Sequence record: PZ019084.1
Reading direction: 5' to 3' (one strand)
Length of the DNA: 64,000 nt
DNA from: a phage
Under the pieces are notes generated by a model, which worked only from the letters and a program-made list of their open reading frames with translations, was not told the DNA's origin and made no database searches. Position numbers and translations under genes: made by a program. Positions 5,841 to 53,800 of the stretch are shown one piece after another (position 1 is the stretch's first letter; each line of letters opens with the position of its first letter).

Positions 5841-7040
5841 TTTTGTAATAATGTCAAACTGTTCTTTAAAGCAGAAGCTTGAATCTTGATGCTGATACAA
5901 AAATTCATAAGCTTTTTCGCGTTCACGGTCATAAAGAGCTCGGTCAGATGACAGTTCTTTAATACGCTCAAATGTTGATTCCATGTCATTTTCATCAAAC
6001 CAAACGATACCGCTATCATGAGAAATTAACGGAGTATTATCAACACGGAATTTTAAATTTTCGCCAGTAGATTTCCAAAATACTGGAATTGTTCCACATG
6101 CACCAAGCTCGAGATGAGTATATTCTAAAGAACGTTGTAGATATTTTTTGTCCAACTTACTCAGCTGATAACCAAATCCAGATTTACTCATGCGTTCAAG
6201 CATTTCGCTATTTACATAACGGTCAAGAATTTGCGTTGGCAAATTAGGAGCAATTTTAATTTGGTCTACTTGATGAAGACGATAATACTCGTATGGAATT
6301 CCTTTTTCTTTAATAGGAATGAACGCTGGAGAACGTTCCAGACCTTCCATAATAGTACTTAACCCTGCAGGTTTAAGATGTTTTTCGTGAAAATCAAACA
6401 TCTGATAAAAACCTTTCCATGTAGTAGTACGACCAATCCAACGGTTGATATTCATGTTAATTTCAGAAACATCTTTCCAGTAAGTTGATCGAACCTTCGC
6501 AATATCCATAGGAGGCTGAAAGTTGTATACAGTCGGTGCTTCTTCAATATCATCAAACAGTGAAACAGTTTCTGGATACCATTCTTTCATCAGAACTTTA
6601 TTAAAATCACCATTATCAGAATGACTAAAAATAACATCAGCTCGGCGAACAGTTTCTTCTAATCCCAAATTTCGACGCAAAGAAAGAGAAGAATGGTCAT
6701 GTTGATAAACTACAACACGAACCGAAGGTTTAATGTTATCAATAATTTTTTTATAGTTATTAATAGTGTCTTCTTCGACTGAAGTAGCAGGAACTGAATT
6801 GATAACTAGAATATCACAATCATTTACCAGCTTAAGCGTTTTATCGTATTCTTTTGCCAATAAAACCGGAATTGAAAATGATTTATAATCATGCGCGCAA
6901 TTACGTGTAAATGATTTATCTTTAGCATAAACCAAAGTTACTTCATGACCATTTTTAATAAACCAATCACGCTGCTCAAGAGAAAATTTAGTTACGCCAC
7001 AACCTTCAAGACCTCGAGCCATAAAAATGCATACTTTCAT
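5838..7040 (-). CDS. a-gt: DNA alpha-glucosyltransferase
   Basis: 400 aa, same as T4 AGT; N-terminus CIFMARGLEGCGVTKFSLEQRDWF matches remembered T4 AGT. Confidence 0.85.
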   Translation of the reverse strand: MKVCIFMARGLEGCGVTKFSLEQRDWFIKNGHEVTLVYAKDKSFTRNCAHDYKSFSIPVLLAKEYDKTLKLVNDCDILVINSVPATSVEEDTINNYKKIIDNIKPSVRVVVYQHDHSSLSLRRNLGLEETVRRADVIFSHSDNGDFNKVLMKEWYPETVSLFDDIEEAPTVYNFQPPMDIAKVRSTYWKDVSEINMNINRWIGRTTTWKGFYQMFDFHEKHLKPAGLSTIMEGLERSPAFIPIKEKGIPYEYYRLHQVDQIKIAPNLPTQILDRYVNSEMLERMSKSGFGYQLSKLDKKYLQRSLEYTHLELGACGTIPVFWKSTGENLKFRVDNTPLISHDSGIVWFDENDMESTFERIKELSSDRALYDREREKAYEFLYQHQDSSFCFKEQFDIITK

Positions 7041-7110: not shown

Positions 7111-7283
7111 CCGCATAATACGCCATACAAAGGCTCGTTAGAGCTTCTAAATTTTATGCGCTTATATGTTATAGTTCCTTCTGCTTTAGCTTTATCGTGA
7201 GCCTCTTTAAAGCGTCTCATCATTTCTACTTTAGAGGAACGAATTTTATTATAATCTATTTCAGAAGTCTGGGTGTTCATCTT

Positions 7284-8534: not shown

Positions 8535-8612
8535 TTTCACCTCTTAGCTCAATTCATAGATCTATTATATCATAATATTTGAAGATCTATCTTAAAGCAT
8601 AGAGGATATCAG

Positions 8613-8882
8613 TTATCTAAGTAAGCAGTATGCTTGGAACACTTTCTCCATCATCTTTTTAAATTCATGAATATCTATGTAATGACTAGTTAAATCAGCA
8701 TGATATAAAAAGTCTAAAAACTTTTCATGCGTGCTAACATATTCAATTTCATTTAATTCAGAAACATGGCTTTCCCAATATCCAACACCAGTCTTATTTG
8801 GGAAAAATGAAATTTTCATATATTGGTCAACATAGAAAATTCCATAATTTTCAATAGTAATAGAAATATTAATAAATTTCAT
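8613..8882 (-). CDS. Hypothetical small protein
   Basis: 89 aa ORF in the 55-to-nrdH block of small early genes. Confidence 0.4.
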   Translation of the reverse strand: MKFINISITIENYGIFYVDQYMKISFFPNKTGVGYWESHVSELNEIEYVSTHEKFLDFLYHADLTSHYIDIHEFKKMMEKVFQAYCLLR

Positions 8883-15962: not shown

Positions 15963-16888
15963 TTCAATACCTCAATAGCATTACGTAAACCATTTGCTTT
16001 TGCATTAAGAGCTTTTAACAATTTAGTGTGTTCGGCAATCTGGGCTTCAACTTCAATCAAACGAGCATTGAGATATTCGCGTTCTTCGCTCAGGCTATCA
16101 ACCTTTTCTACTTTAGGTTCTTTTACAATTGGCTTGTATGTATTAGGGTTCTTCAGTTTAATTAGAATGCGTGAGCTGTATAACATTGAACCATTATCTT
16201 CGGTTTCGTCATACATTTCTACTACGTCCATGATTTTTAACATCATGCGGAGTTTATAAGACAACGAACGAATAGTTTTGTTGTGCTTATTAATTTCTCT
16301 AGCTGTCATGGTGCCGAGATTACGTGAGTAATAATAAGGAACCTGGATATTAATTAATACTGATGAACCACCTGGCTTGTGTGTTACTTCATCAGCAATA
16401 ACCCAGTCCTTAACATGAACTGTATTTGTACGGTCATCACCCGCGGTAAACAGTTTGCGAGCATGCTTAAAAAGCATATTCACTTGGTCATTGAATTGAC
16501 AAGCAAATTTATCAGCAAATTTAGTTTCAGGAATGGTAGATAACCAATCAGCCAAATGGGTCTTTTTAACATCGTTAACAATAGTAAATTCAACCAAATC
16601 GGTTATAGATGTCGCAGATTTAATGAAGCTCGGCTTCATAAAGTTTTTAATGTTATCACTAGCTACAGTAGAAGATAACAGACGAGAACGTTTAAACCAT
16701 TGAAGCAAATTGCCTAACGAATGAGAATAAGCGTTTTGAGTATCTTTACAGATATGATTTTCCTGGCCAACATATTGAAGGAAATCACGAAGAATATTAT
16801 TGATTATTGCTCTGTGCCCAATCTGATAATTACGATGTTTAGTAATAAGACTGTCAAAATAATCAATATAATGTTTACGAGTTTTCAT
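15959..16888 (-). CDS. Early protein, member of a tandem paralog family with C-terminal coiled coil
   Basis: 309 aa; starts MKTRKHYIDYFD; C-terminal heptad-like helix ([33 protein letters not shown]). Confidence 0.5.
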   Translation of the reverse strand: MKTRKHYIDYFDSLITKHRNYQIGHRAIINNILRDFLQYVGQENHICKDTQNAYSHSLGNLLQWFKRSRLLSSTVASDNIKNFMKPSFIKSATSITDLVEFTIVNDVKKTHLADWLSTIPETKFADKFACQFNDQVNMLFKHARKLFTAGDDRTNTVHVKDWVIADEVTHKPGGSSVLINIQVPYYYSRNLGTMTAREINKHNKTIRSLSYKLRMMLKIMDVVEMYDETEDNGSMLYSSRILIKLKNPNTYKPIVKEPKVEKVDSLSEEREYLNARLIEVEAQIAEHTKLLKALNAKANGLRNAIEVLK

Positions 16889-16940
16889 GTTCTTCTCACT
16901 TGGTTAATGATTTATACTCCGAGCCATCCTTGGCTTTAAA

Positions 16941-17942
16941 TTACTTAATTAACTGTAAAGCTTGTTCAAGACGATCCAGACGATTAACAGATTCTTCCCA
17001 AATCCTTTTAGCCTGCTCATATTCTTTCTGCGCTTTATTAGAAATTTCTAGAGCTTCTTTATAAGCTTTTTCTAGTGCAATAACTTCTGGACGAATTTCT
17101 ACATGTTCAGGCGAATCATCAAGATTATCCATTAGTTCCTCAAGTGTAATTTCTTCTTTAGGAGTATTCACAATTTCATCACATTTTTGTTGGTAAATTT
17201 CTTTATCAGTCGGTAAATAAGCACATTTCACTTCACGAAGACTAACTACAATTTTATATCCTTCCCAACCGCATATATTCTTAAAAGGATACGTATGAAT
17301 ATTTTCTACTGTTTCCATACAAAGTAATGCGGTTTCTAATTGACGAGTTATAGTGCTAGCAATTGAGAAAAATTTATTAATGTTCTTTTGGTTAGTTTCT
17401 GGTGTAAAAAATCCATAATTCACAAAAATAGATACTTTATTTTTATCAAGTTCATATTCTTTTATGATAATCATATCAGAAGCCAAAGGATGAATTTGAC
17501 GATAATCGCCATAACATAATTTAGAAGCTGATTTTAGAATCTGTCCTTTGAAAAGTCTGAAATTACTAATCCAACGACGAGTAAAAATATTCTCAGGGTC
17601 TTCTTTATTATTAAGATGATAAGAATTAACATCACCGAACCAATTATATCCTACTACATCTTTGGTTCGTTTAATTTCTTTCCCAAAATTACCAAGAATA
17701 TCCCGATTAACCAAATATGAAAGAAGACGAGACTCTTTAAAGGTTTTCTTGATAACATCTTTATCTACACGGCTAGAAATTTTACGAATTTCATGAATAA
17801 ATTTAGTAGAAGAAACAATACCTGCATCAACACTATTGAGCCATTGATTGATAATAGAAATAACGCTATTTTGACCAAACATCGGTATAGCTTTATCATC
17901 AATAACGCTGTTGAATGATTTGATATATTCGTTACGAGTCAT
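16941..17942 (-). CDS. Early protein, paralog family member
   Basis: Start set at MTRNEYIKSF (GAGGAG RBS; longer ORF start lies inside the promoter); C-terminal coiled coil. Confidence 0.5.
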   Translation of the reverse strand: MTRNEYIKSFNSVIDDKAIPMFGQNSVISIINQWLNSVDAGIVSSTKFIHEIRKISSRVDKDVIKKTFKESRLLSYLVNRDILGNFGKEIKRTKDVVGYNWFGDVNSYHLNNKEDPENIFTRRWISNFRLFKGQILKSASKLCYGDYRQIHPLASDMIIIKEYELDKNKVSIFVNYGFFTPETNQKNINKFFSIASTITRQLETALLCMETVENIHTYPFKNICGWEGYKIVVSLREVKCAYLPTDKEIYQQKCDEIVNTPKEEITLEELMDNLDDSPEHVEIRPEVIALEKAYKEALEISNKAQKEYEQAKRIWEESVNRLDRLEQALQLIK

Positions 17943-17970
17943 AATAATCTCCTCAGTAGAAAGTAAGAAC

Positions 17971-18000
17971 ATTATACCACATCCTTGTGGCGAAGTAAAC
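17971..18000 (-). promoter_or_regulatory. T4-type early promoter with spacer stem-loop (PeSL-like)
   Basis: Plus strand cattataccacATCCTTgtggcgaagtaaac: -10 complement, hairpin ccaca/tgtgg around ATCCTT, and gtaaac (-35). Confidence 0.55.
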
Positions 18001-19028
18001 TAGTTTAGTGCATTTAGTGCATTGTTTAGTTTAGAACGTTGCTTCGTGAGATTTTTGACTTTTTCTTGAGCTTTTTCTAGCATCTTTTCAGCTTCTAACA
18101 CTTCATTAGTTGCTTTAACGAGTTCATCATCTACTGCCTTGATAGACTTCTCAATCGCATCGGCATGCCATTTTTCAACAGGTTTAAGACTCGGATTTTC
18201 AACAGGAAGAAAATTCACTTTATTGAATTTCCATGCATCATTATTACCTGAACTATACATCCAAAATTTAGGATCGTTTGATGAGTAATTGGATAAATTT
18301 AAATTTAAGTTATCTTGCACTTCTTGCTTTTTCTCTTGTGTAACTTCGTCCTTTCTCAAAAATTCATATTTAAATGAAACGATCATATCAAGTTCATACG
18401 TTGTTGTATGTTCCCAATTTCGCTCAAAACGAGGTAAAATCTTAGACTGAACTGCAGCAACAACATCCATATACTTAAATGCTTCTGTCAACTGCGATTT
18501 AAGGCATTCGCAAATTGAAAGAGAATTTTTTGTATTAGGTTTAAAGCTAATTCGTGCAGTTCTGTTATTTTCTTTTAATGGTCTTACTTCCATCTGAAGA
18601 GTATAACCATCAAATTTCAGATTCTTTAAGTTAATATCAGAACCTTTTAATCGACTCGCAGTTGATAAAATTTGCTTTAATTGTCTACGGAACAGAGCAA
18701 TAAATCTCCATTCAATACGATAATGATTTGGATTGAAAAATCCAGATAATAAATCGACCTTACTTTGACCAACGCCTTGAACAAATAGAGGATTTTTATA
18801 ATCAATAGTTTTACAGAAATCTGTGAGCTGCTCACGAGCCGTCATTTGTGTAATATACCCCGCTTTACTAAAATTACTCACCCATTCACTGCTATTTAGA
18901 TATTTAAAATGATGAATAGCACGATTAACTTTATCAGGGTCTAAATTATTTTGACACAAAAATGTCATAACATCACGAGTATAGCTGGCATTACGAACCA
19001 TATCTTCAATTTGAGAACGAGTTTTCAT
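18000..19028 (-). CDS. Early protein, paralog family member
   Basis: 342 aa; starts MKTRSQIEDMV; C-terminal coiled coil (EKMLEKAQEKVKNLTKQRSKLNNALNALN). Confidence 0.5.
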   Translation of the reverse strand: MKTRSQIEDMVRNASYTRDVMTFLCQNNLDPDKVNRAIHHFKYLNSSEWVSNFSKAGYITQMTAREQLTDFCKTIDYKNPLFVQGVGQSKVDLLSGFFNPNHYRIEWRFIALFRRQLKQILSTASRLKGSDINLKNLKFDGYTLQMEVRPLKENNRTARISFKPNTKNSLSICECLKSQLTEAFKYMDVVAAVQSKILPRFERNWEHTTTYELDMIVSFKYEFLRKDEVTQEKKQEVQDNLNLNLSNYSSNDPKFWMYSSGNNDAWKFNKVNFLPVENPSLKPVEKWHADAIEKSIKAVDDELVKATNEVLEAEKMLEKAQEKVKNLTKQRSKLNNALNALN

Positions 19029-19036
19029 GGTGTTCC

Positions 19037-19948
19037 TTAAGATTTAAGTAAATCAACAATTTTAATTAACTTTTCACGCTCAGATTTAGCTTTACTACTC
19101 AATCCAGATAGTCTGAAAATTTCATCGTCATATTGTTGAATAGAAATATTCAGCTCTTCAATCTGCTTATTAAAATAATCAATTTGTTCAGAATGTTTTT
19201 CGTTACTACGAACTGGTACAGGTTTTGTAGGCAATGTAGTTGAACTGGATTCATCCGGGCGATAAATTAAAATACAGCTTGAACCAATAGGGCATTTTTC
19301 ACCAGATGAATATTCTAATGTTCCAGCTTCTTTTAAAACTTCAAAAGCTAAACAGAGATGATGACCCATATTAACATAATCTGTAGAGTGAGCTCTGATG
19401 TAATAATCATCTCCACGAATACTAAATTTAAAGCATTTAAGGTCTTCTGTATTATTGGTCTTAAAAATCATTTGTTTATCTAGACCTTTAGCTAATCGAG
19501 CGCCTAATGCTAATAGTCGTCGTTGATTTTCCCACAAATCTGCGATCATTTGATCGAATGATAATTTTGGCATCAGTCGACCATAAAGGTCATATCCTTT
19601 ATTGTAATTACGAAGAATTTCACTCGCGTTAATACGAGACAATGCTCCAATTTTATTAAGGGCTTTCATAATGCGATTAGATAAACTCATTCCAGACCCA
19701 TTTGTTCGCTGTAAATGTTTTTCTAATCCAAATCCAATATCAACTTTAAACTTATCTAAAATTTCTGCATGAACATCTCTGTCGATAACATTCAAATCCA
19801 AAGTTGAGTTAAATCTATGAAAAAATTTATCTGGCTCTCCACGACGAAGTACAGTCCATTCATTCATCATTTTTTTATTAACTAAAGATTTAATTACTGC
19901 ATTGACATTATTAATTACTACTGACATATTTTCCTCACTCAATTTCAA
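19037..19948 (-). CDS. Early protein with C-terminal coiled coil (possible fourth family member)
   Basis: 303 aa; similar size and C-terminal helix, but N-terminus differs (MKLSEENMSV). Confidence 0.45.
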   Translation of the reverse strand: MKLSEENMSVVINNVNAVIKSLVNKKMMNEWTVLRRGEPDKFFHRFNSTLDLNVIDRDVHAEILDKFKVDIGFGLEKHLQRTNGSGMSLSNRIMKALNKIGALSRINASEILRNYNKGYDLYGRLMPKLSFDQMIADLWENQRRLLALGARLAKGLDKQMIFKTNNTEDLKCFKFSIRGDDYYIRAHSTDYVNMGHHLCLAFEVLKEAGTLEYSSGEKCPIGSSCILIYRPDESSSTTLPTKPVPVRSNEKHSEQIDYFNKQIEELNISIQQYDDEIFRLSGLSSKAKSEREKLIKIVDLLKS

Positions 19949-20342
19949 TTTTACTAAATATACAGAATAAGATGGAACAGACTATATAAGCACCACACAC
20001 AGATTGAACTAATACCATTCCAAAGAACCAAACAATATTATCAAACAATGTCTGTTTTACGTCGAAAGGACGTAAACTTACAGTAATATTATCACCTTTT
20101 TCTATTGAAGAATACATCTCTGGGGAAATATATTCACTAAATCTATAACCATCTTTGAGTTCATATACGGCAATAAACGATAAACTAGACCCTTTTCCTT
20201 GTGTTCCTGTAATGGTATTAACTACAGTAACATCATAATCTTTATAATGCATATAATCATTAATTGCGTAATAACCATATGCAACTACTACACATAAACA
20301 ACATATCAATAAATTCAATCTTTTAATTATCAACTGTTTCAT
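19935..20342 (-). CDS. Membrane protein
   Basis: 135 aa; hydrophobic N-terminal and C-terminal segments. Confidence 0.45.
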   Translation of the reverse strand: MKQLIIKRLNLLICCLCVVVAYGYYAINDYMHYKDYDVTVVNTITGTQGKGSSLSFIAVYELKDGYRFSEYISPEMYSSIEKGDNITVSLRPFDVKQTLFDNIVWFFGMVLVQSVCGAYIVCSILFCIFSKIEIE

Positions 20343-20370
20343 AATAATCTCAATTAAAAGGGCTTAGAAC

Positions 20371-20396
20371 CATTATACCATCCTTGGTATAAAGCG
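20371..20396 (-). promoter_or_regulatory. Early promoter -10 region with spacer stem-loop (weak -35)
   Basis: Plus strand cattataccATCCTTggtataaagc: TGGTATAATG on coding strand; hairpin tacca/tggta around ATCCTT. Confidence 0.4.
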
Positions 20397-20397
20397 G

Positions 20398-20925
20398 TTA
20401 TGCGAGTACCGTCTTTAACCGTTCTTCAAACTTCCGAAGAGTATTTTGGCGTTCAGCTCTTTGCTTTTTGTAAGTTTCAATACGCTCTGAAATGAGAGTG
20501 TATCGTTCATTTACTGATTCTTTCATAAAATCAGGAATTTCACGAGAAGCTTTAATCTCGTCAAATTTATCAATAACAGCTTGCTCTTCAGCAATTAAGT
20601 TATCATACATTAAAATATCTTTCTTGATGAACTCAATATCTTCTTGAGTTACACGAGATAATTTAGATGCTTTATCCTTTTTGTACTGTTCATTAGTATC
20701 ACGAGACCAGTGTAATGTACGATTTTTATTCGTATTTTTGTAAATTTCTACAATACCAATCTCATCAATAATAACGATCCAATTCCAACGGGATTTGTAA
20801 ATTTGTCCTCCATCAACAGTGATTTCACCTCCGATTGAGATGTCGTTAAAGAACTTGCTTTGTGCTTCAGATTTAAATTTACCATCGTTGTAATTTACCA
20901 AGTTGAAAATATCTTTAGCGTTCAT
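20398..20925 (-). CDS. Hypothetical protein
   Basis: 175 aa ORF downstream of an early promoter. Confidence 0.45.
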   Translation of the reverse strand: MNAKDIFNLVNYNDGKFKSEAQSKFFNDISIGGEITVDGGQIYKSRWNWIVIIDEIGIVEIYKNTNKNRTLHWSRDTNEQYKKDKASKLSRVTQEDIEFIKKDILMYDNLIAEEQAVIDKFDEIKASREIPDFMKESVNERYTLISERIETYKKQRAERQNTLRKFEERLKTVLA

Positions 20926-20952
20926 TTTGTGTTCCTCCGTAGTTGATAGTTG

Positions 20953-20983
20953 TATAGTACCACAGAGGAACAGTCTTGTAAAC
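20953..20983 (-). promoter_or_regulatory. T4-type early promoter
   Basis: Plus strand tatagtacca...(spacer)...gtaaac; coding strand GTTTACA N18 TACTATA with TGG upstream. Confidence 0.6.
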
Positions 20984-20985
20984 TA

Positions 20986-21300
20986 CTAAAAGAAACTTCT
21001 TTCACAATTTTTTCCACTGAACCATGCGCTCACTACTTTCTTAGTCTCAGGAGCAGTGTTATCCATAAACCATTCAAAGGCAGCCTTTTTATGATTCTGG
21101 AGGGCTTCTCGGGCTTTAATCTGCTCGCGGTCTATTAACACTAACATATGAGCCTTTCTTGTCACCATGGGCTTCTTATGATTTTTTGAATACTCCCAGT
21201 CATTTGTCCATCGCATTGTCGTTGCGAACTGAAATACTGCTTCTTTAATTTTAGTTTCGTAAATTTCACGAGCCTTTGAGTATAACATCACTACCTCCAT
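20986..21300 (-). CDS. Hypothetical protein
   Basis: 104 aa ORF. Confidence 0.4.
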   Translation of the reverse strand: MEVVMLYSKAREIYETKIKEAVFQFATTMRWTNDWEYSKNHKKPMVTRKAHMLVLIDREQIKAREALQNHKKAAFEWFMDNTAPETKKVVSAWFSGKNCERSFF

Positions 21301-22471: not shown

Positions 22472-22473
22472 TA

Positions 22474-36811: not shown

Positions 36812-36854
36812 AGTATTTCCTTAGGTTAATTGAGATTTAAAATCCGTGGGAGTA

Positions 36855-37031
36855 TTATACTCCAAAGAGTTTATAAACTATTTCGACATCGCCTTTTGCT
36901 GCTTTATAACCTTCAGCCCAGGATACAACCGAATTTTTATCTGAAGATTCAAACTCTGGCATTGGGCTTTCACCAATATTCACGCAGTATGTTTCTTCAT
37001 TCTCGTCAAACCAAATAATTAAAGTAGTCAT
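36855..37031 (-). CDS. Small protein (58 aa), not in ORF track
   Basis: Minus-strand ATG at 37031 preceded by GGAGAAATAA RBS; translates MTTLIIWFDENEETYCVNIGESPMPEF... Confidence 0.3.
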   Translation of the reverse strand: MTTLIIWFDENEETYCVNIGESPMPEFESSDKNSVVSWAEGYKAAKGDVEIVYKLFGV

Positions 37032-37065
37032 TTATTTCTCCGTTTCTGTATTTGTTTTGATAAGT

Positions 37066-37095
37066 CTATAATAACACCATCCTTGGTGTTTGTAC
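37066..37095 (-). promoter_or_regulatory. Early promoter-like element with spacer stem-loop
   Basis: Plus strand ctataataacaccATCCTTggtgtttgtaca: hairpin cacca/tggtg around ATCCTT next to a TATTATAG -10-like box. Confidence 0.4.
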
Positions 37096-37105
37096 ATCAT
37101 TATTT

Positions 37106-37438
37106 TTAATTTTTCCAACTTAACAACTTGTAGTGTCCTTCATTCATACGTGGTTTATCCCAAGAAATACTAATATATGATTCACTGTCAATAGAAGTCG
37201 CCGGGTTTTTCTCTACCGTAAGACCTTCACTTTCCAGCCATTCAATAGTATTTGCGCATAAATCGGAAGAACACCTCATCGGAAACCGGCAAGATTTTTC
37301 ACCTTTAGATGCAGCGTTATACATCTTTTCTAAAATACGCTTTTGCACGTTTTTAAAAATAGTTTCAGCGGATTCTTCAGATTTTTTATTCAGTTCAATA
37401 TAAAGACTCATAACATTCTTCTCATTAATAGGGCTCAT
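37106..37438 (-). CDS. Hypothetical protein
   Basis: 110 aa ORF. Confidence 0.4.
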   Translation of the reverse strand: MSPINEKNVMSLYIELNKKSEESAETIFKNVQKRILEKMYNAASKGEKSCRFPMRCSSDLCANTIEWLESEGLTVEKNPATSIDSESYISISWDKPRMNEGHYKLLSWKN

Positions 37439-37466
37439 AATATCTCAATCATGAGCCTGTGTAAAC

Positions 37467-37941: not shown

Positions 37942-37960
37942 CCCTATCATTTAGATAGGG
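37942..37960 (-). terminator. Hairpin plus U-run (intrinsic terminator)
   Basis: Minus strand ccctatctaaatgatagggcTTTTTgg just downstream of ORF 37969-38532. Confidence 0.55.
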
Positions 37961-37968
37961 ATTTAAAA

Positions 37969-38532
37969 TTATTTATCTAGTTTAGTTATTATAGCTTCTG
38001 CGGCAGCTTTTAGCTTAGATGCGGTGTTAATACGATTTTTAATTTCAGTATACGCATCGCCAAGAACATCAAGGCTATCAGAATAAACACTTACACTATT
38101 GCGTTCGCTATTTGAAATAGAACCTTTAGTTTTACGATCAAAATCGGTGTACACGTCTTGAAGATCACGGGCTGCCTTCTTTGCATCATCCAATGCGTCA
38201 AGAGCTTTATTCAAAGCATTAACGTATTTTTTAGTGTCAAACATATTCTTAGAAATTTTAACAGGTGCGCGTTCAGGAGTAGCTAATGCAGATTTAGGAA
38301 CCTGAGCGCCAGATGCCAATTTCTTAGAAATTTTGAAAAACGCTTTATTGAATTTATTTTCTTGACTCATCGTAAAAGAACTATTATCGATGTTGTACAT
38401 TTCAATAGCTTTAGCTTTCCACTTAAGAAAATTGCCGCGGTCTTTTGGGTCCAAGTGGAAGAATACTTTAGTAAGATCTGCTTCAGATGGTAATTTTGCT
38501 GCTTCGGTTAAAAATTCGGCATAGGTTTTCAT
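37969..38532 (-). CDS. Candidate capsid-targeted internal protein (CTS-like N-terminus)
   Basis: 187 aa; N-terminus MKTYAEFLTEAAK resembles the CTS of ipII/ipIII; lysine/alanine-rich. Confidence 0.5.
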   Translation of the reverse strand: MKTYAEFLTEAAKLPSEADLTKVFFHLDPKDRGNFLKWKAKAIEMYNIDNSSFTMSQENKFNKAFFKISKKLASGAQVPKSALATPERAPVKISKNMFDTKKYVNALNKALDALDDAKKAARDLQDVYTDFDRKTKGSISNSERNSVSVYSDSLDVLGDAYTEIKNRINTASKLKAAAEAIITKLDK

Positions 38533-38627
38533 TTAAAATCCTTGAAATAATTTATCAGTTGGTTATTAATTATTTATTACTTTGTTATTATCCGTAACAG
38601 CATTCTCTATGTGATTCAAACTAAAAA

Positions 38628-38650
38628 GCCCCAACCTTTCGGTCGGGGCT
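38628..38650 (-). terminator. Hairpin plus U-run (intrinsic terminator)
   Basis: Minus strand agccccgaccgaaaggttggggcTTTTTag. Confidence 0.6.
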
Positions 38651-38657
38651 AAGAATG

Positions 38658-39131
38658 TTATTTGATTTGTTTAGCAGACCAAATGCGGTCTTTAATAATT
38701 TTTTGGATGTCTTCAACATACTCAAGAGAGTGAACATGTGGATTATCTTTGAAACTATAAGCACGGGCTAACTTTTGGCCTTCGGTTTTGATTACTAAAA
38801 GCTCTTTAAGGATAGCTTCATATTTAGCGATAATTCCTTTAACGATATTTTTTTCTTGTGCAGCTTTAGGATCTGCTTTAGGAGCAGGTTTACCCGAAGC
38901 CTTTGCAAAAGCAGCACCAGTAGCAACTAAACTTTTCCAGGCCATACTAACCGCATTTCCCGTAAATCCTTCTGCTTTCATGTCGCGAGCAAATTGGAAT
39001 CGTGATTCGTCAGAAGCATCTTTATAGGAATATTTACCCGCTGCAATGGCTGCTTTTGCGACAGCTTGAATTTCGGTGCTAGATGCTTCATTTAACACCG
39101 CTTCATTTAAAAATTGAGCATATGATTTCAT
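38658..39131 (-). CDS. Candidate capsid-targeted internal protein (CTS-like N-terminus)
   Basis: 157 aa; N-terminus MKSYAQFLNEAVLNEA resembles the CTS; late promoter TATAAATA 40 nt upstream. Confidence 0.5.
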   Translation of the reverse strand: MKSYAQFLNEAVLNEASSTEIQAVAKAAIAAGKYSYKDASDESRFQFARDMKAEGFTGNAVSMAWKSLVATGAAFAKASGKPAPKADPKAAQEKNIVKGIIAKYEAILKELLVIKTEGQKLARAYSFKDNPHVHSLEYVEDIQKIIKDRIWSAKQIK

Positions 39132-39171
39132 CTTATTTCCTGTTTTAATTCGTAGATTTAATATACTACTA

Positions 39172-39179
39172 TATTTATA
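39172..39179 (-). promoter_or_regulatory. Late promoter (TATAAATA)
   Basis: Plus strand tatttata = TATAAATA on coding strand, between terminator hairpin and ORF 38658-39131. Confidence 0.6.
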
Positions 39180-39889: not shown

Positions 39890-39965
39890 TGGTCGAGGCA
39901 GTAGGGATCGAACCTACGACCTAGGACTTAGAAGGTCCTTGCTCTTCCTTCTGAGCTATGCCCCG
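39890..39965 (-). tRNA. tRNA-Arg (anticodon TCT)
   Basis: Minus strand folds as cloverleaf: acceptor CGGGGCA/TGCCTCG, anticodon loop CTTCTAA, T-arm GGTTCGATCC, CCA encoded. Confidence 0.8.
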
Positions 39966-40046
39966 TAATTGGGGTGACCGATGGGAGTCGAACCCATGAC
40001 TACGAGAATCACAATCTCGAGTTCTACCAACTGAACTACGGCCACA
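39966..40046 (-). tRNA. tRNA-His (anticodon GTG)
   Basis: Acceptor GTGGCCG/CGGTCAC, D-arm GTTCAGTTGGTAGAAC, anticodon loop TTGTGAT, T-arm GGGTTCGACTCCC, CCA encoded; no encoded G-1. The tRNA itself is approximately 39971-40046. Confidence 0.6.
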
Positions 40047-40159
40047 TTAATACCTACTCCAACAATCAAGATGTCTTCACACGAAATTAAGAGAAGAGTG
40101 ATCAGTTCAACCCCTATAATCGCGTCAAGTAGATATTAATGTGACAGTTGTCACAAATT

Positions 40160-40234
40160 TGGCGGACGTGATAGGATTCGAACCTATAACCAATCGCTTA
40201 ACAGGCGATCGCTCTGCCATTGAGCTACACATCC
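40160..40234 (-). tRNA. tRNA-Asn (anticodon GTT)
   Basis: Acceptor GGATGTG/CACGTCC, anticodon stem ATCGC/GCGAT with loop CTGTTAA, T-arm AGGTTCGAATCCT, CCA encoded. Confidence 0.7.
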
Positions 40235-40238
40235 AAAT

Positions 40239-40325
40239 TGGTGGGGAGTGATGGAGTCGAACCACCCGAGTCGCAATGACAATGGATTTACAGTCCACAC
40301 CGCTACCTCTACGGGATAACTCCCC
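40239..40325 (-). tRNA. tRNA-Tyr (anticodon GTA), long variable arm
   Basis: Acceptor GGGGAGT/ACTCCCC, anticodon loop CTGTAAA, long variable arm, T-arm GGTGGTTCGACTCCATC, CCA encoded. Confidence 0.65.
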
Positions 40326-40338
40326 TTAATTCTTAATT

Positions 40339-40413
40339 TGGTGGCCCTGGGTGGAATTGAACCACCATCTGGCGATTATGAGTCGCTTGCTTGAACCTTC
40401 CAGCTACAGGGCC
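40339..40413 (-). tRNA. tRNA with CAT anticodon (Ile, as in T4, or Met)
   Basis: Acceptor GGCCCTG/CAGGGCC, anticodon loop CTCATAA, T-arm GGTGGTTCAATTCCACC, CCA encoded; position matches T4 tRNA-Ile. Confidence 0.65.
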
Positions 40414-40414
40414 T

Positions 40415-40490
40415 TGGTGCTGATTGACGGAATCGAACCGCCGACCTTCTCATTACAAGTGAGTTGCTCTACCTACTGAGCTAAATCAGC
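40415..40490 (-). tRNA. tRNA-Thr (anticodon TGT)
   Basis: Acceptor GCTGATT/AATCAGC, D-arm GCTCAGTAGGTAGAGC, anticodon loop CTTGTAA, T-arm GGCGGTTCGATTCCGTC, CCA encoded. Confidence 0.8.
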
Positions 40491-40495
40491 AAAAC

Positions 40496-40585
40496 TGGCG
40501 GAGGCGATAGGATTTGAACCTATGAGTCGCCGGAGCGACTGCCGGTTTTCAAGACCGGTGCATTAAACCACTCTGCCACGCCTCC
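40496..40585 (-). tRNA. tRNA-Ser (anticodon TGA), long variable arm
   Basis: Acceptor GGAGGCG/CGCCTCC, anticodon stem CCGGT/ACCGG with loop CTTGAAA, long variable arm, T-arm AGGTTCAAATCCT. Confidence 0.8.
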
Positions 40586-40587
40586 AG

Positions 40588-40661
40588 TCTCCATACAAGG
40601 ATTTGAACCTTGGACCTCCTGATCCCAAATCAGGCGCTCTACCAAACTGAGCTACACGGAG
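40588..40661 (-). tRNA. tRNA-Pro (anticodon TGG), CCA not encoded
   Basis: Acceptor CTCCGTG/TATGGAG, anticodon stem CCTGA/TCAGG with loop TTTGGGA, T-arm AAGGTTCAAATCCTT. Confidence 0.75.
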
Positions 40662-40671
40662 TAAATTAAAT

Positions 40672-40745
<74 letters not shown>

Positions 40746-40750
40746 AAATT

Positions 40751-40837
40751 TGGTGCGAGAAGTGGGACTCGAACCCACAAGGAAATCATTCCGCAGCATT
40801 TTAAGTGCTGTGCCTTTACCAATTTGACCATTCTCGC
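40751..40837 (-). tRNA. tRNA-Leu (anticodon TAA), long variable arm
   Basis: Acceptor GCGAGAA/TTCTCGC, anticodon loop CTTAAAA, long variable arm, T-arm GGGTTCGAGTCCC, CCA encoded. Confidence 0.8.
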
Positions 40838-40838
40838 G

Positions 40839-40911
40839 CTGGGAATAAAGGACTTGAACCTTTGCATCCTGGAATCAAAATCCAGTGCCTTACCAACTTG
40901 GCTAATTCCCA
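40839..40911 (-). tRNA. tRNA-Gln (anticodon TTG), CCA not encoded
   Basis: Acceptor TGGGAAT/ATTCCCA, anticodon stem CTGGA/TCCAG with loop TTTTGAT, T-arm AAGGTTCAAGTCCTT. Confidence 0.75.
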
Positions 40912-48886: not shown

Positions 48887-50869
48887 ATGGCAAATACCCC
48901 TGTAAATTATCAATTAACAAGAACAGCAAATGCTATTCCCGAGATATTCGTCGGGGGTACGTTTGCTGAAATAAAACAAAACCTCATTGAATGGCTTAAT
49001 GGCCAAAATGAATTTTTGGATTATGATTTTGAAGGCTCAAGATTAAACGTTCTGTGTGACCTTTTGGCTTATAATACGCTGTACATTCAGCAGTTTGGTA
49101 ATGCTGCTGTGTATGAAAGCTTTATGCGTACTGCTAACTTACGTAGTTCAGTAGTTCAAGCGGCACAAGATAATGGATATTTACCTACTTCAAAATCAGC
49201 TGCTCAAACTGAAATTATGCTAACTTGTACAGACGCATTGAATAGAAATTACATTACTATTCCTCGCGGTACTCGCTTTTTAGCATATGCAAAAGATACT
49301 TCAGTTAATCCTTACAACTTTGTATCTACTGAAGATGTTATTGCTATTCGTGATAAAAATAACCAATATTTTCCACGTTTAAAATTGGCCCAGGGACGTA
49401 TAGTAAGAACTGAAATCATTTATGATAAATTAACACCTATTATCATTTATGACAAAAATATTGATAGAAACCAGGTTAAATTATATGTTGATGGAGCGGA
49501 ATGGATTAACTGGACAAGAAAGTCAATGGTTCATGCTGGTTCAACATCAACGATTTACTATATGCGTGAAACTATTGATGGAAACACTGAATTCTATTTT
49601 GGCGAAGGTGAAATTTCTGTTAATGCTTCTGAAGGAGCTTTGACCGCTAATTATATCGGAGGTCTTAAACCTACCCAGAACTCTACGATTGTTATTGAGT
49701 ACATCAGTACTAACGGCGCAGATGCGAATGGCGCAGTCGGATTTTCATATGCAGATACATTAACAAATATAACTGTCATCAATATTAACGAAAACCCAAA
49801 TGATGACCCAGATTTTGTTGGGGCAGATGGCGGCGGCGATCCAGAAGATATTGAACGTATTCGCGAATTGGGTACTATTAAACGCGAAACCCAGCAACGC
49901 TGCGTAACTGCGACTGACTATGATACATTCGTTTCAGAGAGATTTGGTTCTATTATTCAAGCAGTTCAGACGTTCACTGATTCTACTAAACCTGGTTATG
50001 CATTTATTGCTGCTAAACCTAAATCAGGGCTATATTTAACTACTGTACAGCGCGAAGATATTAAAAATTATCTCAAAGACTATAATTTAGCTCCTATTAC
50101 GCCATCAATTATTTCTCCTAATTATCTTTTTATTAAGACTAATTTAAAAGTCACATATGCTTTAAATAAGCTACAAGAATCCGAACAGTGGCTCGAAGGT
50201 CAAATAATTGATAAAATTGATCGTTATTATACCGAAGACGTAGAAATTTTTAACTCATCTTTCGCTAAATCTAAGATGTTGACATATGTAGATGATGCAG
50301 ATCACTCTATCATTGGCTCATCAGCGACAATTCAAATTGTTCGTGAAGTACAAAACTTCTATAAAACGCCTGAAGCAGGTATTAAATACAATAATCAAAT
50401 AAAAGATCGTTCTATGGAATCTAATACGTTTTCATTTAATTCTGGACGAAAGGTTGTGAATCCTGATACTGGTTTAGAAGAAGATGTATTATATGACGTT
50501 CGTATAGTATCAACAGACCGAGATTCTAAAGGAATTGGTAAAGTTATTATTGGTCCATTTGCTTCTGGCGATGTTACAGAAAATGAAAACATTCAGCCGT
50601 ATACAGGCAACGATTTTAACAAATTAGCAAATTCTGATGGACGCGACAAATACTATGTTATCGGTGAAATAAATTATCCAGCTGATGTGATTTATTGGAA
50701 TATCGCTAAAATTAATTTAACATCTGAAAAATTTGAAGTTCAGACCATCGAATTATATTCTGACCCAACCGATGATGTTATCTTTACTCGCGACGGTTCA
50801 CTGATTGTATTTGAAAATGACTTACGTCCACAATACTTAACTATCGATTTGGAGCCTATATCACAATGA
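48887..50869 (+). CDS. 6: Baseplate wedge protein gp6
   Basis: 660 aa, same as T4 gp6; gene order. Confidence 0.85.
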   Translation: MANTPVNYQLTRTANAIPEIFVGGTFAEIKQNLIEWLNGQNEFLDYDFEGSRLNVLCDLLAYNTLYIQQFGNAAVYESFMRTANLRSSVVQAAQDNGYLPTSKSAAQTEIMLTCTDALNRNYITIPRGTRFLAYAKDTSVNPYNFVSTEDVIAIRDKNNQYFPRLKLAQGRIVRTEIIYDKLTPIIIYDKNIDRNQVKLYVDGAEWINWTRKSMVHAGSTSTIYYMRETIDGNTEFYFGEGEISVNASEGALTANYIGGLKPTQNSTIVIEYISTNGADANGAVGFSYADTLTNITVININENPNDDPDFVGADGGGDPEDIERIRELGTIKRETQQRCVTATDYDTFVSERFGSIIQAVQTFTDSTKPGYAFIAAKPKSGLYLTTVQREDIKNYLKDYNLAPITPSIISPNYLFIKTNLKVTYALNKLQESEQWLEGQIIDKIDRYYTEDVEIFNSSFAKSKMLTYVDDADHSIIGSSATIQIVREVQNFYKTPEAGIKYNNQIKDRSMESNTFSFNSGRKVVNPDTGLEEDVLYDVRIVSTDRDSKGIGKVIIGPFASGDVTENENIQPYTGNDFNKLANSDGRDKYYVIGEINYPADVIYWNIAKINLTSEKFEVQTIELYSDPTDDVIFTRDGSLIVFENDLRPQYLTIDLEPISQ

Positions 50870-53800
50870 CAGTAAAAGCACCTTCAGTCACTAGTCTCAG
50901 AATTTCCAAGTTATCCGCAAATCAGGTGCAAGTACGCTGGGATGACGTTGGTGCTAATTTCTACTATTTTGTAGAAATCGCTGAGACAAAAACAAACTCG
51001 GGGGAAAATCTCCCGAGTAATCAATATAGATGGATTAACTTAGGATATACTGCAAATAACAGCTTCTTTTTTGATGATGCTGACCCGTTGACATCATACA
51101 TTATCAGAGTAGCTACTGCTGCGCAAGATTTTGAGCAGTCTGATTGGATTTATACCGAAGAGTTTGAAACTTTTGCTACAAATGCTTATACATTTCAAAA
51201 CATGATTGAAATGCAATTAGCTAATAAATTCATTCAGGAAAAATTTACTCTTAATAATTCTGATTATGTCAATTTTAATAATGACACTATAATGGCTGCA
51301 TTAATGAATGAATCATTTCAGTTCAGCCCATCATATGTTGACGTTTCATCAATAAGCAATTTTATTATTGGTGAAAATGAGTATCATGAAATACAGGGTT
51401 CTATTCAGCAAGTATGTAAGGATATTAACCGAGTTTATTTGATGGAATCAGAAGGGATTCTATACCTTTTTGAGCGTTATCAACCTGTAGTTAAAGTATC
51501 CAATGATAAAGGACAAACTTGGAAAGCTGTAAAGCTCTTCAATGACCGCGTAGGATATCCTTTATCTAAGACAGTATATTACCAATCTGCGAACACAACA
51601 TACGTTCTAGGATACGACAAGATTTTCTATGGCCGCAAATCGACTGATGTTAGATGGTCAGCTGACGATGTCAGATTTAGTTCGCAGGATATAACATTCG
51701 CTAAACTTGGCGACCAATTACATTTAGGATTTGATGTAGAAATTTTTGCCACTTACGCGACTTTACCAGCGAATGTATATCGCATTGCAGAAGCTATTAC
51801 TTGCACCGATGATTACATTTACGTTGTCGCCAGAGACAAAGTTAGATACATAAAAACGAGCAATGCACCTATAGATTCTGATCCATTATCTCCAACATAT
51901 TCGGAAAGGCTTTTTGAACCTGATACGATGACTATAACCGGAAATCCTAAAGCAGTATGCTATAAAATGGATTCTATCGGTGATAAAGTTTTTGCTCTTA
52001 TTATTGGTGAAGTTGAAACATTAAATGCTAATCCTAGAACATCAAAAATAATTGATTCTGCTGATAAAGGAATATATGTTTTAAATCATGACACAAAAAC
52101 ATGGAAAAGAGTTTTTGGCAATACTGAAGAAGAAAGAAGACGTATTCAACCGGGGTATGCGAATATGTCAACTGATGGTAAATTAGTTTCTCTATCATCG
52201 AGTAATTTTAAATTTTTAAGTGATAATATTGTTAATGACCCTGAAACTGCAGTAAAATATCAGTTAATCGGTGCTGTTAAATATGAATTTCCTCGTGAAT
52301 GGTTAGCTGATAAGCATTATCATATGATGGCATTTATAGCAGATGAAAAGTCTGATTGGGAAACTTTTACTCCTCAGCCGATGAAATACTATGCAGAACC
52401 ATTCTTTAACTGGTCTAAAAAATCTAACACACGTTGTTGGATAAACAACTCTGATAGGGTTGTAGTAGTTTATGCTGATTTGAAATACACTAAGGTTATA
52501 GAAAATATTCCTGAAACATCACCAGATAGATTAGTTCATGAATACTGGGATGATGGCGATTGCACTATAGTAATGCCAAATGTTAAATTCACTGGATTTA
52601 AAAAATATGCGTCTGGGATGCTTTTCTATAAAGCCTCTGGCGAAATAATTTCTTACTATGATTTTAACTATCGTGTTAGAGACACTGTCGAAATTATTTG
52701 GAAGCCAACTGAAGTATTTTTAAAAGCATTTTTACAAAACCAAGAGCATGAAACTCCTTGGTCGCCTGAAGAAGAGCGTGGATTAGCTGACCCTGATTTA
52801 AGACCGTTGATTGGCACAATGATGCCTGATTCTTATTTGTTACAGGATTCGAATTTTGAGGCATTTTGCGAAGCATATATTCAGTATCTTTCTGATGGAT
52901 ATGGAACCCAGTATAATAATTTACGAAATTTAATTCGTAACAAATATCCACGAGAAGAGCATGCATGGGAATATTTGTGGTCAGAGATATATAAAAGAAA
53001 CATTTATTTAAATGCTGACAAACGCGATGCTGTTGCAAGATTTTTCGAATCACGTAGCTATGATTTTTATTCTACTAAAGGAATTGAAGCATCATACAAA
53101 TTTCTTTTTAAAGTTCTTTATAATGAAGAGGTTGAAATTGAAATTGAATCTGGGGCTGGTACTGAATATGATATAATCGTTCAATCTGATTCTTTGACTG
53201 AAGACTTAGTAGGACAAACGATTTATACAGCCACAGGAAGATGTAATGTTACTTATATAGAAAGAAGCTATTCTAATGGTAAATTGCAATGGACCGTAAC
53301 TATTCATAATCTTTTGGGAAGATTGATTGCCGGTCAAGAAGTTAAAGCAGAAAGACTTCCTAGTTTTGAAGGCGAAATTATTCGTGGCGTTAAAGGAAAG
53401 GATTTGCTTCAAAACAATATAGACTATATTAATAGAAGTAGATCATACTATGTAATGAAAATTAAATCCAATTTACCTTCTTCCCGCTGGAAATCTGACG
53501 TTATTCGTTTTGTTCATCCAGTAGGATTTGGATTTATAGCAATTACCCTTTTAACAATGTTTATTAATGTTGGTTTAACTCTTAAACATACAGAGACTAT
53601 AATTAATAAATACAAAAACTATAAATGGGATTCTGGATTGCCTACTGAATACGCTGATAGAGTAGCTAAATTGACTCCAACTGGAGAAATTGAGCATGAT
53701 TCAGTAACAGGCGAAGCAATTTATGAGCCTGGCCCAATGGCTGGCGTAAAATATCCTCTTCCTGATGACTATAATGCTGAAAATAATAATTCAATATTTC

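Follow-up and report, generated by a model that had tools for sequence, protein, structure and literature searches.

The DNA considered here, a 64,000-nucleotide stretch of a phage genome (PZ019084.1; hereafter the window), is that of a Tequatrovirus with ~92–97% identity to T4, and the 31.5–96.2 kb interval of T4 is collinear with it, known mobile-gene differences excepted. Four short hairpins within the window are the subject of this study. The first three (sites 1–3) fall in the nrdC.3–nrdC.8 block, the genes of which are on the minus strand, and the surrounding region (16000–21000) matches hundreds of Tequatrovirus genomes at 90–98% identity. T4 carries identical hairpin copies at 49893 (site 1, 49893–49906), 50950 and 53333. 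The fourth hairpin (site 4) has no T4 counterpart. All four are located between the stop codon of the preceding gene and the Shine-Dalgarno sequence (SD) or ATG of the next, in intergenic regions of ~55–75 bp. We regard them as copies of one conserved stem-loop module, in which a 4–8 bp stem (5–8 bp at the four window sites) is free in sequence while its arms remain complementary.

The stem-loop module and its covariation

The conserved unit on the sense strand is C-AAGGA(T/C)-G, a hexaloop AAGGAY with a C-G closing pair. Description of the apex as a hexaloop is preferred because the T/C variation, seen in AAGGAC variants, removes the A-U 'pair' within it. RNA folding of 31–35 nt contexts puts the AGGA of every site in the loop, in the minimum free energy and centroid structures alike. 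The original prediction had reported hairpins with an ATCCTT core (AAGGAT on the coding strand) and covarying arms at these positions, and its coordinates and arm sequences were correct at each of the four. At site 3 an outer helix (AACCG...UGGUU; 20366–20400, minus strand) extends the pairing to ~13 pairs across both the MotA box and the −10 box. Among hairpins with stems of at least 5 bp, UUCG tetraloops are the commonest (7 in the window, 17 in T4); AGGA, with four copies in the window, is the next most notable G+C-containing tetraloop.

Complementarity of the arms far exceeds what chance would supply. The hexamer ATCCTT is itself only mildly over-represented in the window (63 observed against 48.5 expected), and the signal therefore resides in the flanks. 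The four CAAGGAYG octamers of the window are all intergenic and on the minus (coding) strand, and they are flanked by 3, 3, 5 and 6 further Watson-Crick pairs. In a composition-matched control set of 59 octamers, built from C, a permuted AAGGAT and G, two or more further pairs are rare (~6%): 5 of the 86 copies in the window have them, as do 11 of the 195 copies in T4. An alignment of 12 distinct stems from Tequatro-, Mosig-, Gapriver- and Jiaodavirus phages has 94.4% of its cells paired compared with 63.4% in shuffles, none of 500 shuffles equalling it, and a covariation score of 0.81 against 0.18. Sliding the partner columns as a control lowers pairing to 22–46%, and 22 of the 24 cells are paired in two outer columns that played no part in sequence selection. 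Three pairs on the sense strand are G.U and the remaining stem pairs are all Watson-Crick.

A covariance model built from the 12 distinct family members recovers exactly the four window sites (24.2–28.3 bits), with the next best match at 14.7 bits. Across 309 kb, comprising the window, T4 and RB69 0–76 kb, it finds 14 matches of at least 19.4 bits, all on the sense strand. In 885 kb of unrelated viral contigs, each preselected for containing CAAGGATG...TATAAT, there are three such matches and arm pairing is at chance level. Control octamers, shuffles, slid columns and the gap in model scores together rule out a chance origin. The earlier claim of covarying, complementary arms is thus borne out, and we are highly confident that the hairpin structure is under selection. 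The stems come in 12 versions on an 8-nt apex that is constant across four genera, an indication that the loop sequence is itself selected.

Related elements occur in RB69, in JN02 and other Mosigvirus loci, in VR25-type Gaprivervirus, at the cef promoter of a Klebsiella Jiaodavirus and in several T4-like contigs of IMG/VR. The 12 distinct stems include AGCC, CCAC, TATACC, ACACC, CAACC, CATCC, TCC, ACTTC, TATC and ACCC. In a relaxed CA.GGA.G scan of T4-like loci, every hairpin with at least 3 flanking pairs had CAAGGATG or CAAGGACG. T4 has 4–5 copies, one of which, upstream of rIIA.1 at 2433, is additional to those shared with the window; RB69 has at least 6. Whole cassettes are repeated at distant loci: those of T4 at 2.4 and 50.9 kb (2433 and 50950) are identical at 31 of 32 nt, and RB69 repeats a 71-nt cassette, 48 nt of it perfectly, at 8.9 kb (L197 8911–8930) and 51.0 kb (L198 983–1002), the repeat extending from a point upstream of the −35 box as far as the ATG. 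Neighbouring gene content is variable. RB69 has nrdC.7 at a different position, and VR25 is missing nrdC.3 and nrdC.7 exactly beside such elements. The search for related loci with NrdC.4 gave five loci, and among the matches listed from a loose IMG/VR pattern scan most are due to chance. Rfam holds no matching family at the gathering threshold or at E ≤ 10, and motif strings yielded nothing relevant in the literature searched. The family appears never to have been singled out before.

Several further spacer hairpins were observed. In spacers of T4 early promoters, GGA-loop hairpins with differing loops are present at 167061–167079 (TACCAC-AAGGACC-GTGGTA), 137497–137511 (CCACA-TGGAG-TGTGG) and 7191–7207 (ACTCT-TGGGACC-AGAGT); these may form a looser part of the CAAGGAYG family. 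Outside T4-like phages, a contig with portal, major head and tail fibre genes (L084; IMG/VR 3300020045_001688) has GGCCAAGGATGGCT at 6227–6246, directly after the major head gene and followed by TATAAT, a GGAG SD and an ATG. A second contig (L034) has the same architecture, with ACAGCAAGGATGCTGT-ATAAT. The range of the motif may be wider than T4-like phages.

Promoters and genomic setting of the four sites

Each hairpin overlaps a −10-like hexamer or precedes one by 0–5 nt (Table 1). The original prediction had assigned all four to early promoters, which stands for site 2 (GTTTAC...TATAAT) and is plausible for site 4, but not for site 3, which is at the middle promoter PnrdC.7, or for site 1, which has no usable −35 box.

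Table 1. Coordinates of the hairpins and of the promoter and translation signals beside them.
Feature	Position	Strand	Description
Hairpin 1	16935–16922	−	AGCCA-AGGA-TGGCT; apical C-AAGGAU-G; nrdC.4/nrdC.3 intergenic, 5 nt past nrdC.4 stop codon (16943–16941); −6.8 kcal/mol; covariance model 24.2 bits
−10-like TATAAA, site 1	16911..16916	−	5 nt past hairpin; TTAAAG at −35 position; nrdC.3 ATG at 16888
Hairpin 2	17990–17977	−	CCACA-AGGA-TGTGG; nrdC.5/nrdC.4 intergenic; −7.2 kcal/mol, z = −2.1; covariance model 24.5 bits
Early promoter, site 2	17971..18000	−	GTTTAC (18000–17995), 14 nt, GTGG, TATAAT (17976–17971)
nrdC.4 SD and start	17940..17954	−	SD GAGGAG 17954–17949; ATG 17942–17940
Hairpin 3	20392–20373	−	TTATACCA-AGGA-TGGTATAA; nrdC.8/nrdC.7 intergenic; 3' arm overlaps −10 box; −10.9 kcal/mol, z = −3.0; covariance model 28.3 bits; T4 sequence identical
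Middle promoter, site 3	20365..20395	−	MotA-box-like GCTTTA (20395–20390), 12 nt, TATAAT (20377–20372)
Hairpin 4	37090–37073	−	AACACCA-AGGA-TGGTGTT; between 110-aa open reading frame (stop codon 37108–37106) and 58-aa open reading frame (ATG at 37031); −8.9 kcal/mol, z = −2.8; covariance model 24.6 bits; RB69 homologue 72531–72544
RB69-type early promoter (probable), site 4	37068..37096	−	TGTACA (37096–37091), 17 nt, TATTAT (37073–37068)

At site 2 the stop codon of nrdC.5 (TAG, 18002–18000) runs into the −35 box and the hairpin fills the spacer. The promoter scan reports TTTACT-17-TATAAT with TG here, and the SA20RB annotation likewise has an early promoter at this position. The TATAATG of this promoter contains an ATG (17970–17972) that shares the nrdC.4 reading frame and precedes the start annotated in T4 by 10 codons. 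It is used as the nrdC.4 start in the SA20RB annotation, and lies upstream of the expected transcription start site (TSS) of the embedded promoter. At site 4 the hairpin again fills the spacer, the homologous RB69 promoter reads TGTACA-17-TACTAT, and the site is probably an RB69-type early promoter. For site 3, T4 PnrdC.7 is a mapped MotA-dependent middle promoter with its TSS at 53325 (PMC2988021 Table 1); the window site is its homologue, which by projection from T4 would start transcription at ~20365. The SA20RB annotation places both a middle promoter and a rho-independent terminator there. Site 1 received no call in the promoter scan. It aligns with the RB69 50985 cassette GTTTACAACCAAGGATGGTTGGAGTATAAT, the hairpin being intact with a G-C pair where an A-T pair was, and looks like a decayed RB69-type promoter that has kept its hairpin.

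The hairpin is thus independent of promoter class, occurring with an early (site 2), a mapped middle (site 3) and a decayed promoter (site 1). Measured from the TSS, AGGA falls anywhere between about −16 and −25, and it follows the −35 or MotA box by 5 or 9 nt. Because the position of the hairpin relative to the −10 box shifts by up to 9 nt, it counts as a separate module, not as a promoter contact. A general feature of T4 early promoters is ruled out: of the window's ~10 early promoters one has the hairpin, and of the ~30 GTTTAC promoters of T4 three do. Other inverted repeats were noted at early promoters of the window. In the GTTTAC promoters from 42320, 41954 and 37466 (minus strand), GATGAG/CTCATC, TAGGGT/ACCCTA and GGCTCAT/ATGAGCC enclose the −10 box. 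In the promoter from 30019 (minus strand), CCTCTT...AAGAGG pairs the spacer with the downstream SD, which would be sequestered in read-through RNA only.

Site 4 lies within a 580 bp segment (36828..37407) that is non-homologous to T4, takes the place of e.7 and has 93% identity to RB69 ORF145c/146c. Judged by this similarity, the segment is a cross-genus mosaic module. Its 110-aa open reading frame has no similarity to gp e.7, and its right edge falls inside a conserved early promoter and 5' untranslated region at ~37408–37466. Of the insertions and deletions relative to T4, none is bounded by sites 1–3, and site 4 is internal to the swapped module and not at its edge. Elsewhere the window has DNA that T4 lacks at 1743–2530, 8607–8868 and 37960–39177, including a 187-aa open reading frame (37969–38532), and is itself without T4 mobB, mobC, the I-TevII intron and segC, with junctions near 7031, 11552, 12828 and 48586. 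A tRNA cluster at 39893–40911 (minus strand) comprises eleven tRNA genes against the eight annotated in T4.

Candidate functions of the loop

As each embedded promoter starts transcription downstream of its hairpin, the hairpin is present only in read-through RNA. Between sites 1–3 and the early promoters at 20983 and 22422 there is no terminator-like site. That it acts as RNA is likely in our view. We propose that the module is packed into the sole unconstrained DNA available, the stretch leading from the preceding gene's stop codon (or from the −35 or MotA box) to the −10 box ahead of the following gene, and that in read-through RNA it would serve as a protein-binding site for which the host regulator CsrA is the likeliest ligand. 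CsrA tethered in this way, 29–41 nt upstream of a GGA-containing SD, could act on the downstream cistron, lowering or alternatively stabilising its expression from read-through mRNA, and transcripts from the embedded promoter would escape it. We advance this chain as a whole, from an RNA hairpin on read-through transcripts through protein binding to CsrA, as our preferred but tentative proposal, whose functional steps are conditional. The identification of CsrA as the ligand is a weaker part, possible but rather doubtful. The same doubt attaches to the general form of the proposal, namely that T-even-type enterobacterial phages may plant CsrB-like hairpins with high affinity for CsrA in promoter spacers between cistrons, with CsrA discriminating read-through from promoter-proximal mRNA.

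The consensus obtained for CsrA by in vitro selection (SELEX) reads RUACARGGAUGU, its GGA lying in the loop of a hairpin (PMC4347634; PMC2896534). Hairpin 2 contains ACAAGGAUGU, which agrees with it at 10 of 12 positions, and sites 1, 3 and 4 agree at 9, 8 and 8, compared with 9 for the verified BS1 site of ColE7 cel. Every member of the family has C-A-A-GGA-U/C-G, which fits (A/U)CA-N-GGA-N-G(U/A). The repeats of E. coli CsrB, CACC-AGGAU-GGUG, CUCC-AGGAU-GGAG, CUUC-AGGAU-GAAG and GUC-AAGGAU-GAG, are close to the phage hairpins CACC-AAGGAU-GGUG and CUUC-AAGGAU-GAAG, although the phage loop has an extra A (AAGGAU, where most CsrB repeats have AGGAU). In glgC, the hairpin of the leader, CACA-CGGAU-UGUG, stands 31 nt before the GGA of the SD, and the loop GGA of site 2 stands 32 nt before the GGA of the nrdC.4 SD, a similar spacing of ~30 nt to a GGA-containing SD. 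An SD GGA is found at +29 to +41 nt in 12 of 17 family members, sites 1 and 3 being without one. CsrB is also among the few host RNAs that are stable during T4 infection (PMC9697503).

Two known systems offer partial precedents. In ColE7 cel, CsrA binds both the SD and the GGA loop of T1, an intercistronic stem-loop (PMC2896534), so that there too a mobile E. coli element carries a GGA-loop hairpin between cistrons, upstream of the downstream SD, in an attenuator-like arrangement; it differs in being a single plasmid site that is not promoter-embedded, whereas the phage hairpins are a dispersed family. More generally, the phage hairpins, as putative CsrA sites, lie between cistrons inside promoters and not in 5' leaders. 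In T4 itself, early read-through transcripts of e, soc, 49 and I-TevI are translationally silent and the promoter-proximal ones active (PMC3014915). These genes share with the present sites a promoter placement by which an upstream RNA element of the read-through RNA is missing from the proximal transcript. They differ in that their element pairs directly with the SD, while the phage hairpin excludes the SD and a trans-acting factor has to be postulated.

A number of observations count against CsrA binding to a read-through RNA. The link to CsrA is one of sequence resemblance, and in the literature searched no paper connects CsrA with T4 transcripts. CsrA needs only R at loop position 3, where the phage loops have A without exception, and the ACA that is 100% conserved in SELEX is found only in the CCACA class of phage hairpins. 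The downstream SD is without GGA in 5 of 17 members, and SDs of GGAG type are common in T4 anyway. Copies number only 4–6 per genome and are upstream of genes of unknown function. L148, a possible family member, comes from a distant T4-like phage of a non-enteric lineage. All stem pairs but three are Watson-Crick, so pairing could also occur at the DNA level, and as every copy adjoins a −10-like hexamer, a promoter-linked role beyond the saving of space is conceivable.

The main rival to a protein-binding RNA site is that the elements are simply promoter-early stem-loops (PeSLs), cassettes that combine an early promoter with a stem-loop in hyperplastic regions, with the stem-loop mostly between the −35 and −10 boxes or over the −10 box (PMC2839356). 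The proposed roles of PeSLs are attenuation of read-through and modular shuffling, and one of their stem-loops terminated transcription in a reporter assay (PMC2839356). On this account the hairpin would be a sequence-nonspecific attenuator or terminator and a stretch of recombination homology, and its fixed loop an accident of cassette spread. Much of the architecture agrees with the descriptions of Arbiol et al. 2010 (PMC2839356) and Comeau et al. 2014 (PMC4122927): an intergenic sigma-70-like or MotA-type promoter, the latter corresponding to the PmSL variant with its Mot box, a stem-loop in the spacer or over the −10 box, the commonest placement in RB49/phi1, then an SD and start codon. 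The T4/PST type of PeSL early promoter is TTTACW-N17-TAYWAT. The hyperplastic region, whole cassettes dispersed as repeats at distant loci, gene content beside them that differs among relatives such as VR25 and RB69, the position of site 4 in a module shared with RB69, and the rho-independent terminator that the SA20RB annotators placed at site 3 all favour it.

None of the four sites has a T-run after the stem, and the terminator scan made no coding-strand call at any of them, although it found a true UUCG terminator at 22472–22453; an intrinsic terminator was rejected on these grounds. The stems are short, with folding energies of −6.8 to −10.9 kcal/mol. As set out above, insertions and deletions relative to T4 are not bounded by sites 1–3. 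The stems also depart from those reported, which are Gn-loop-Cn in RB49/phi1 and A3-4G3-loop-C3T3-4 in nt-1, with no conserved loop reported, and AGNA-loop-TCNT upstream of the promoter in T4/PST (PMC4122927). Here the stems are free, C-AAGGAY-G is invariant in four genera and one copy is on a decayed promoter. The match to PeSLs made in the original prediction accordingly holds for the composite promoter and stem-loop cassettes, their repetition and the plastic region, but leaves the invariance of the loop unexplained. PeSL membership does not explain a loop that is invariant across four genera: a generic terminator needs no fixed loop, yet 12 stems carry one 8-nt apex. We consider it possible, if doubtful, that these are PeSL stems and nothing else.

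Recognition at the level of DNA is unlikely. Here a phage or host protein, or RNA polymerase, would recognise CAAGGATG or a cruciform in the spacer and modulate initiation. A −10-like hexamer within 0–5 nt of every copy would suit this, as would the near-complete Watson-Crick pairing, which would let either strand fold, and the spacer and −10 region are the classical position of a repressor operator; T4 early promoters are also said to hold extra unexplained consensus information (PMC2988021). However, the displacement of up to 9 nt relative to the −10 and −35 boxes is most of a helical turn, and the promoters that carry the element include sigma-70 early, MotA/AsiA middle and decayed ones, site 1 having kept its hairpin despite a degenerate promoter. 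A dimeric operator would show the reverse of what is seen here, variable arms flanking a conserved and asymmetric centre, and a reader of duplex DNA needs no complementarity between the arms.

Still less probable is an SD mimic, in which the AAGGA loop would pair with the 3' end of 16S rRNA and form a standby or retention site aiding the next cistron. AAGGA is complementary to the anti-SD UCCUU, the loop is 35–51 nt before the next AUG and 5–10 nt past the upstream stop codon, and similar hairpins in the unrelated contig L016 are genuine SDs. That contig is without relatives in the phage collection, and its hairpins, 8–9 nt before start codons, are SDs of the ordinary kind. In the family proper, all 12 stems have U or C at loop position 6 and none has the G that would extend pairing to the anti-SD; a constant pyrimidine fits CsrA (GGAUG) and not an SD mimic. 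The closing C-G and first A are conserved though unneeded for such pairing, the loop is too distant from the real start codons, which have SDs of their own, and upstream or internal AUGs are unconserved, as the AAGGAC variants show. An upstream start or mini-reading frame served by AAGGA as its SD was also rejected, its ATG being unconserved at the other sites and the AAGGAC variants having no AUG. Finally, a site at which T4 RegB would cut the loop GGAU and inactivate early mRNA is extremely improbable and can be dismissed: RegB does cleave at GGAG and at a few GGAU motifs between early genes (PMC3014915), but of 30 intergenic T4 GGAU motifs tested by Durand et al. only those of 55.2 and motB.2 were cut (PMC1702504), its site is an 11-nt single-stranded GGAGRAYARAA, with structured sites resistant and GGAC the worst substrate (PMC1702504), and the phage GGAU or GGAC is held in a hairpin and followed by GUGGUAU or GGUAUAA with no A-rich tract.

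Implications for T4-type phages

T4 is a reference model for phage gene regulation. Should the loop prove to be a PeSL stem and no more, the definition of PeSLs would be refined to include middle and decayed promoters and elements with no terminator signature. If instead the hairpins bind CsrA, a global regulator of the host would be added to T4 post-transcriptional control, and the tucking of the hairpin into the one unconstrained part of the promoter would be explained. CsrA binding would also provide a testable handle on the nrdC.x and rIIA.1 genes of unknown function. Expression of accessory genes including rIIA.1, nrdC.3, nrdC.4, nrdC.7, cef and motB.1 would then be coupled to the Csr state of the host, a previously undescribed use by T4 of a host post-transcriptional regulator.

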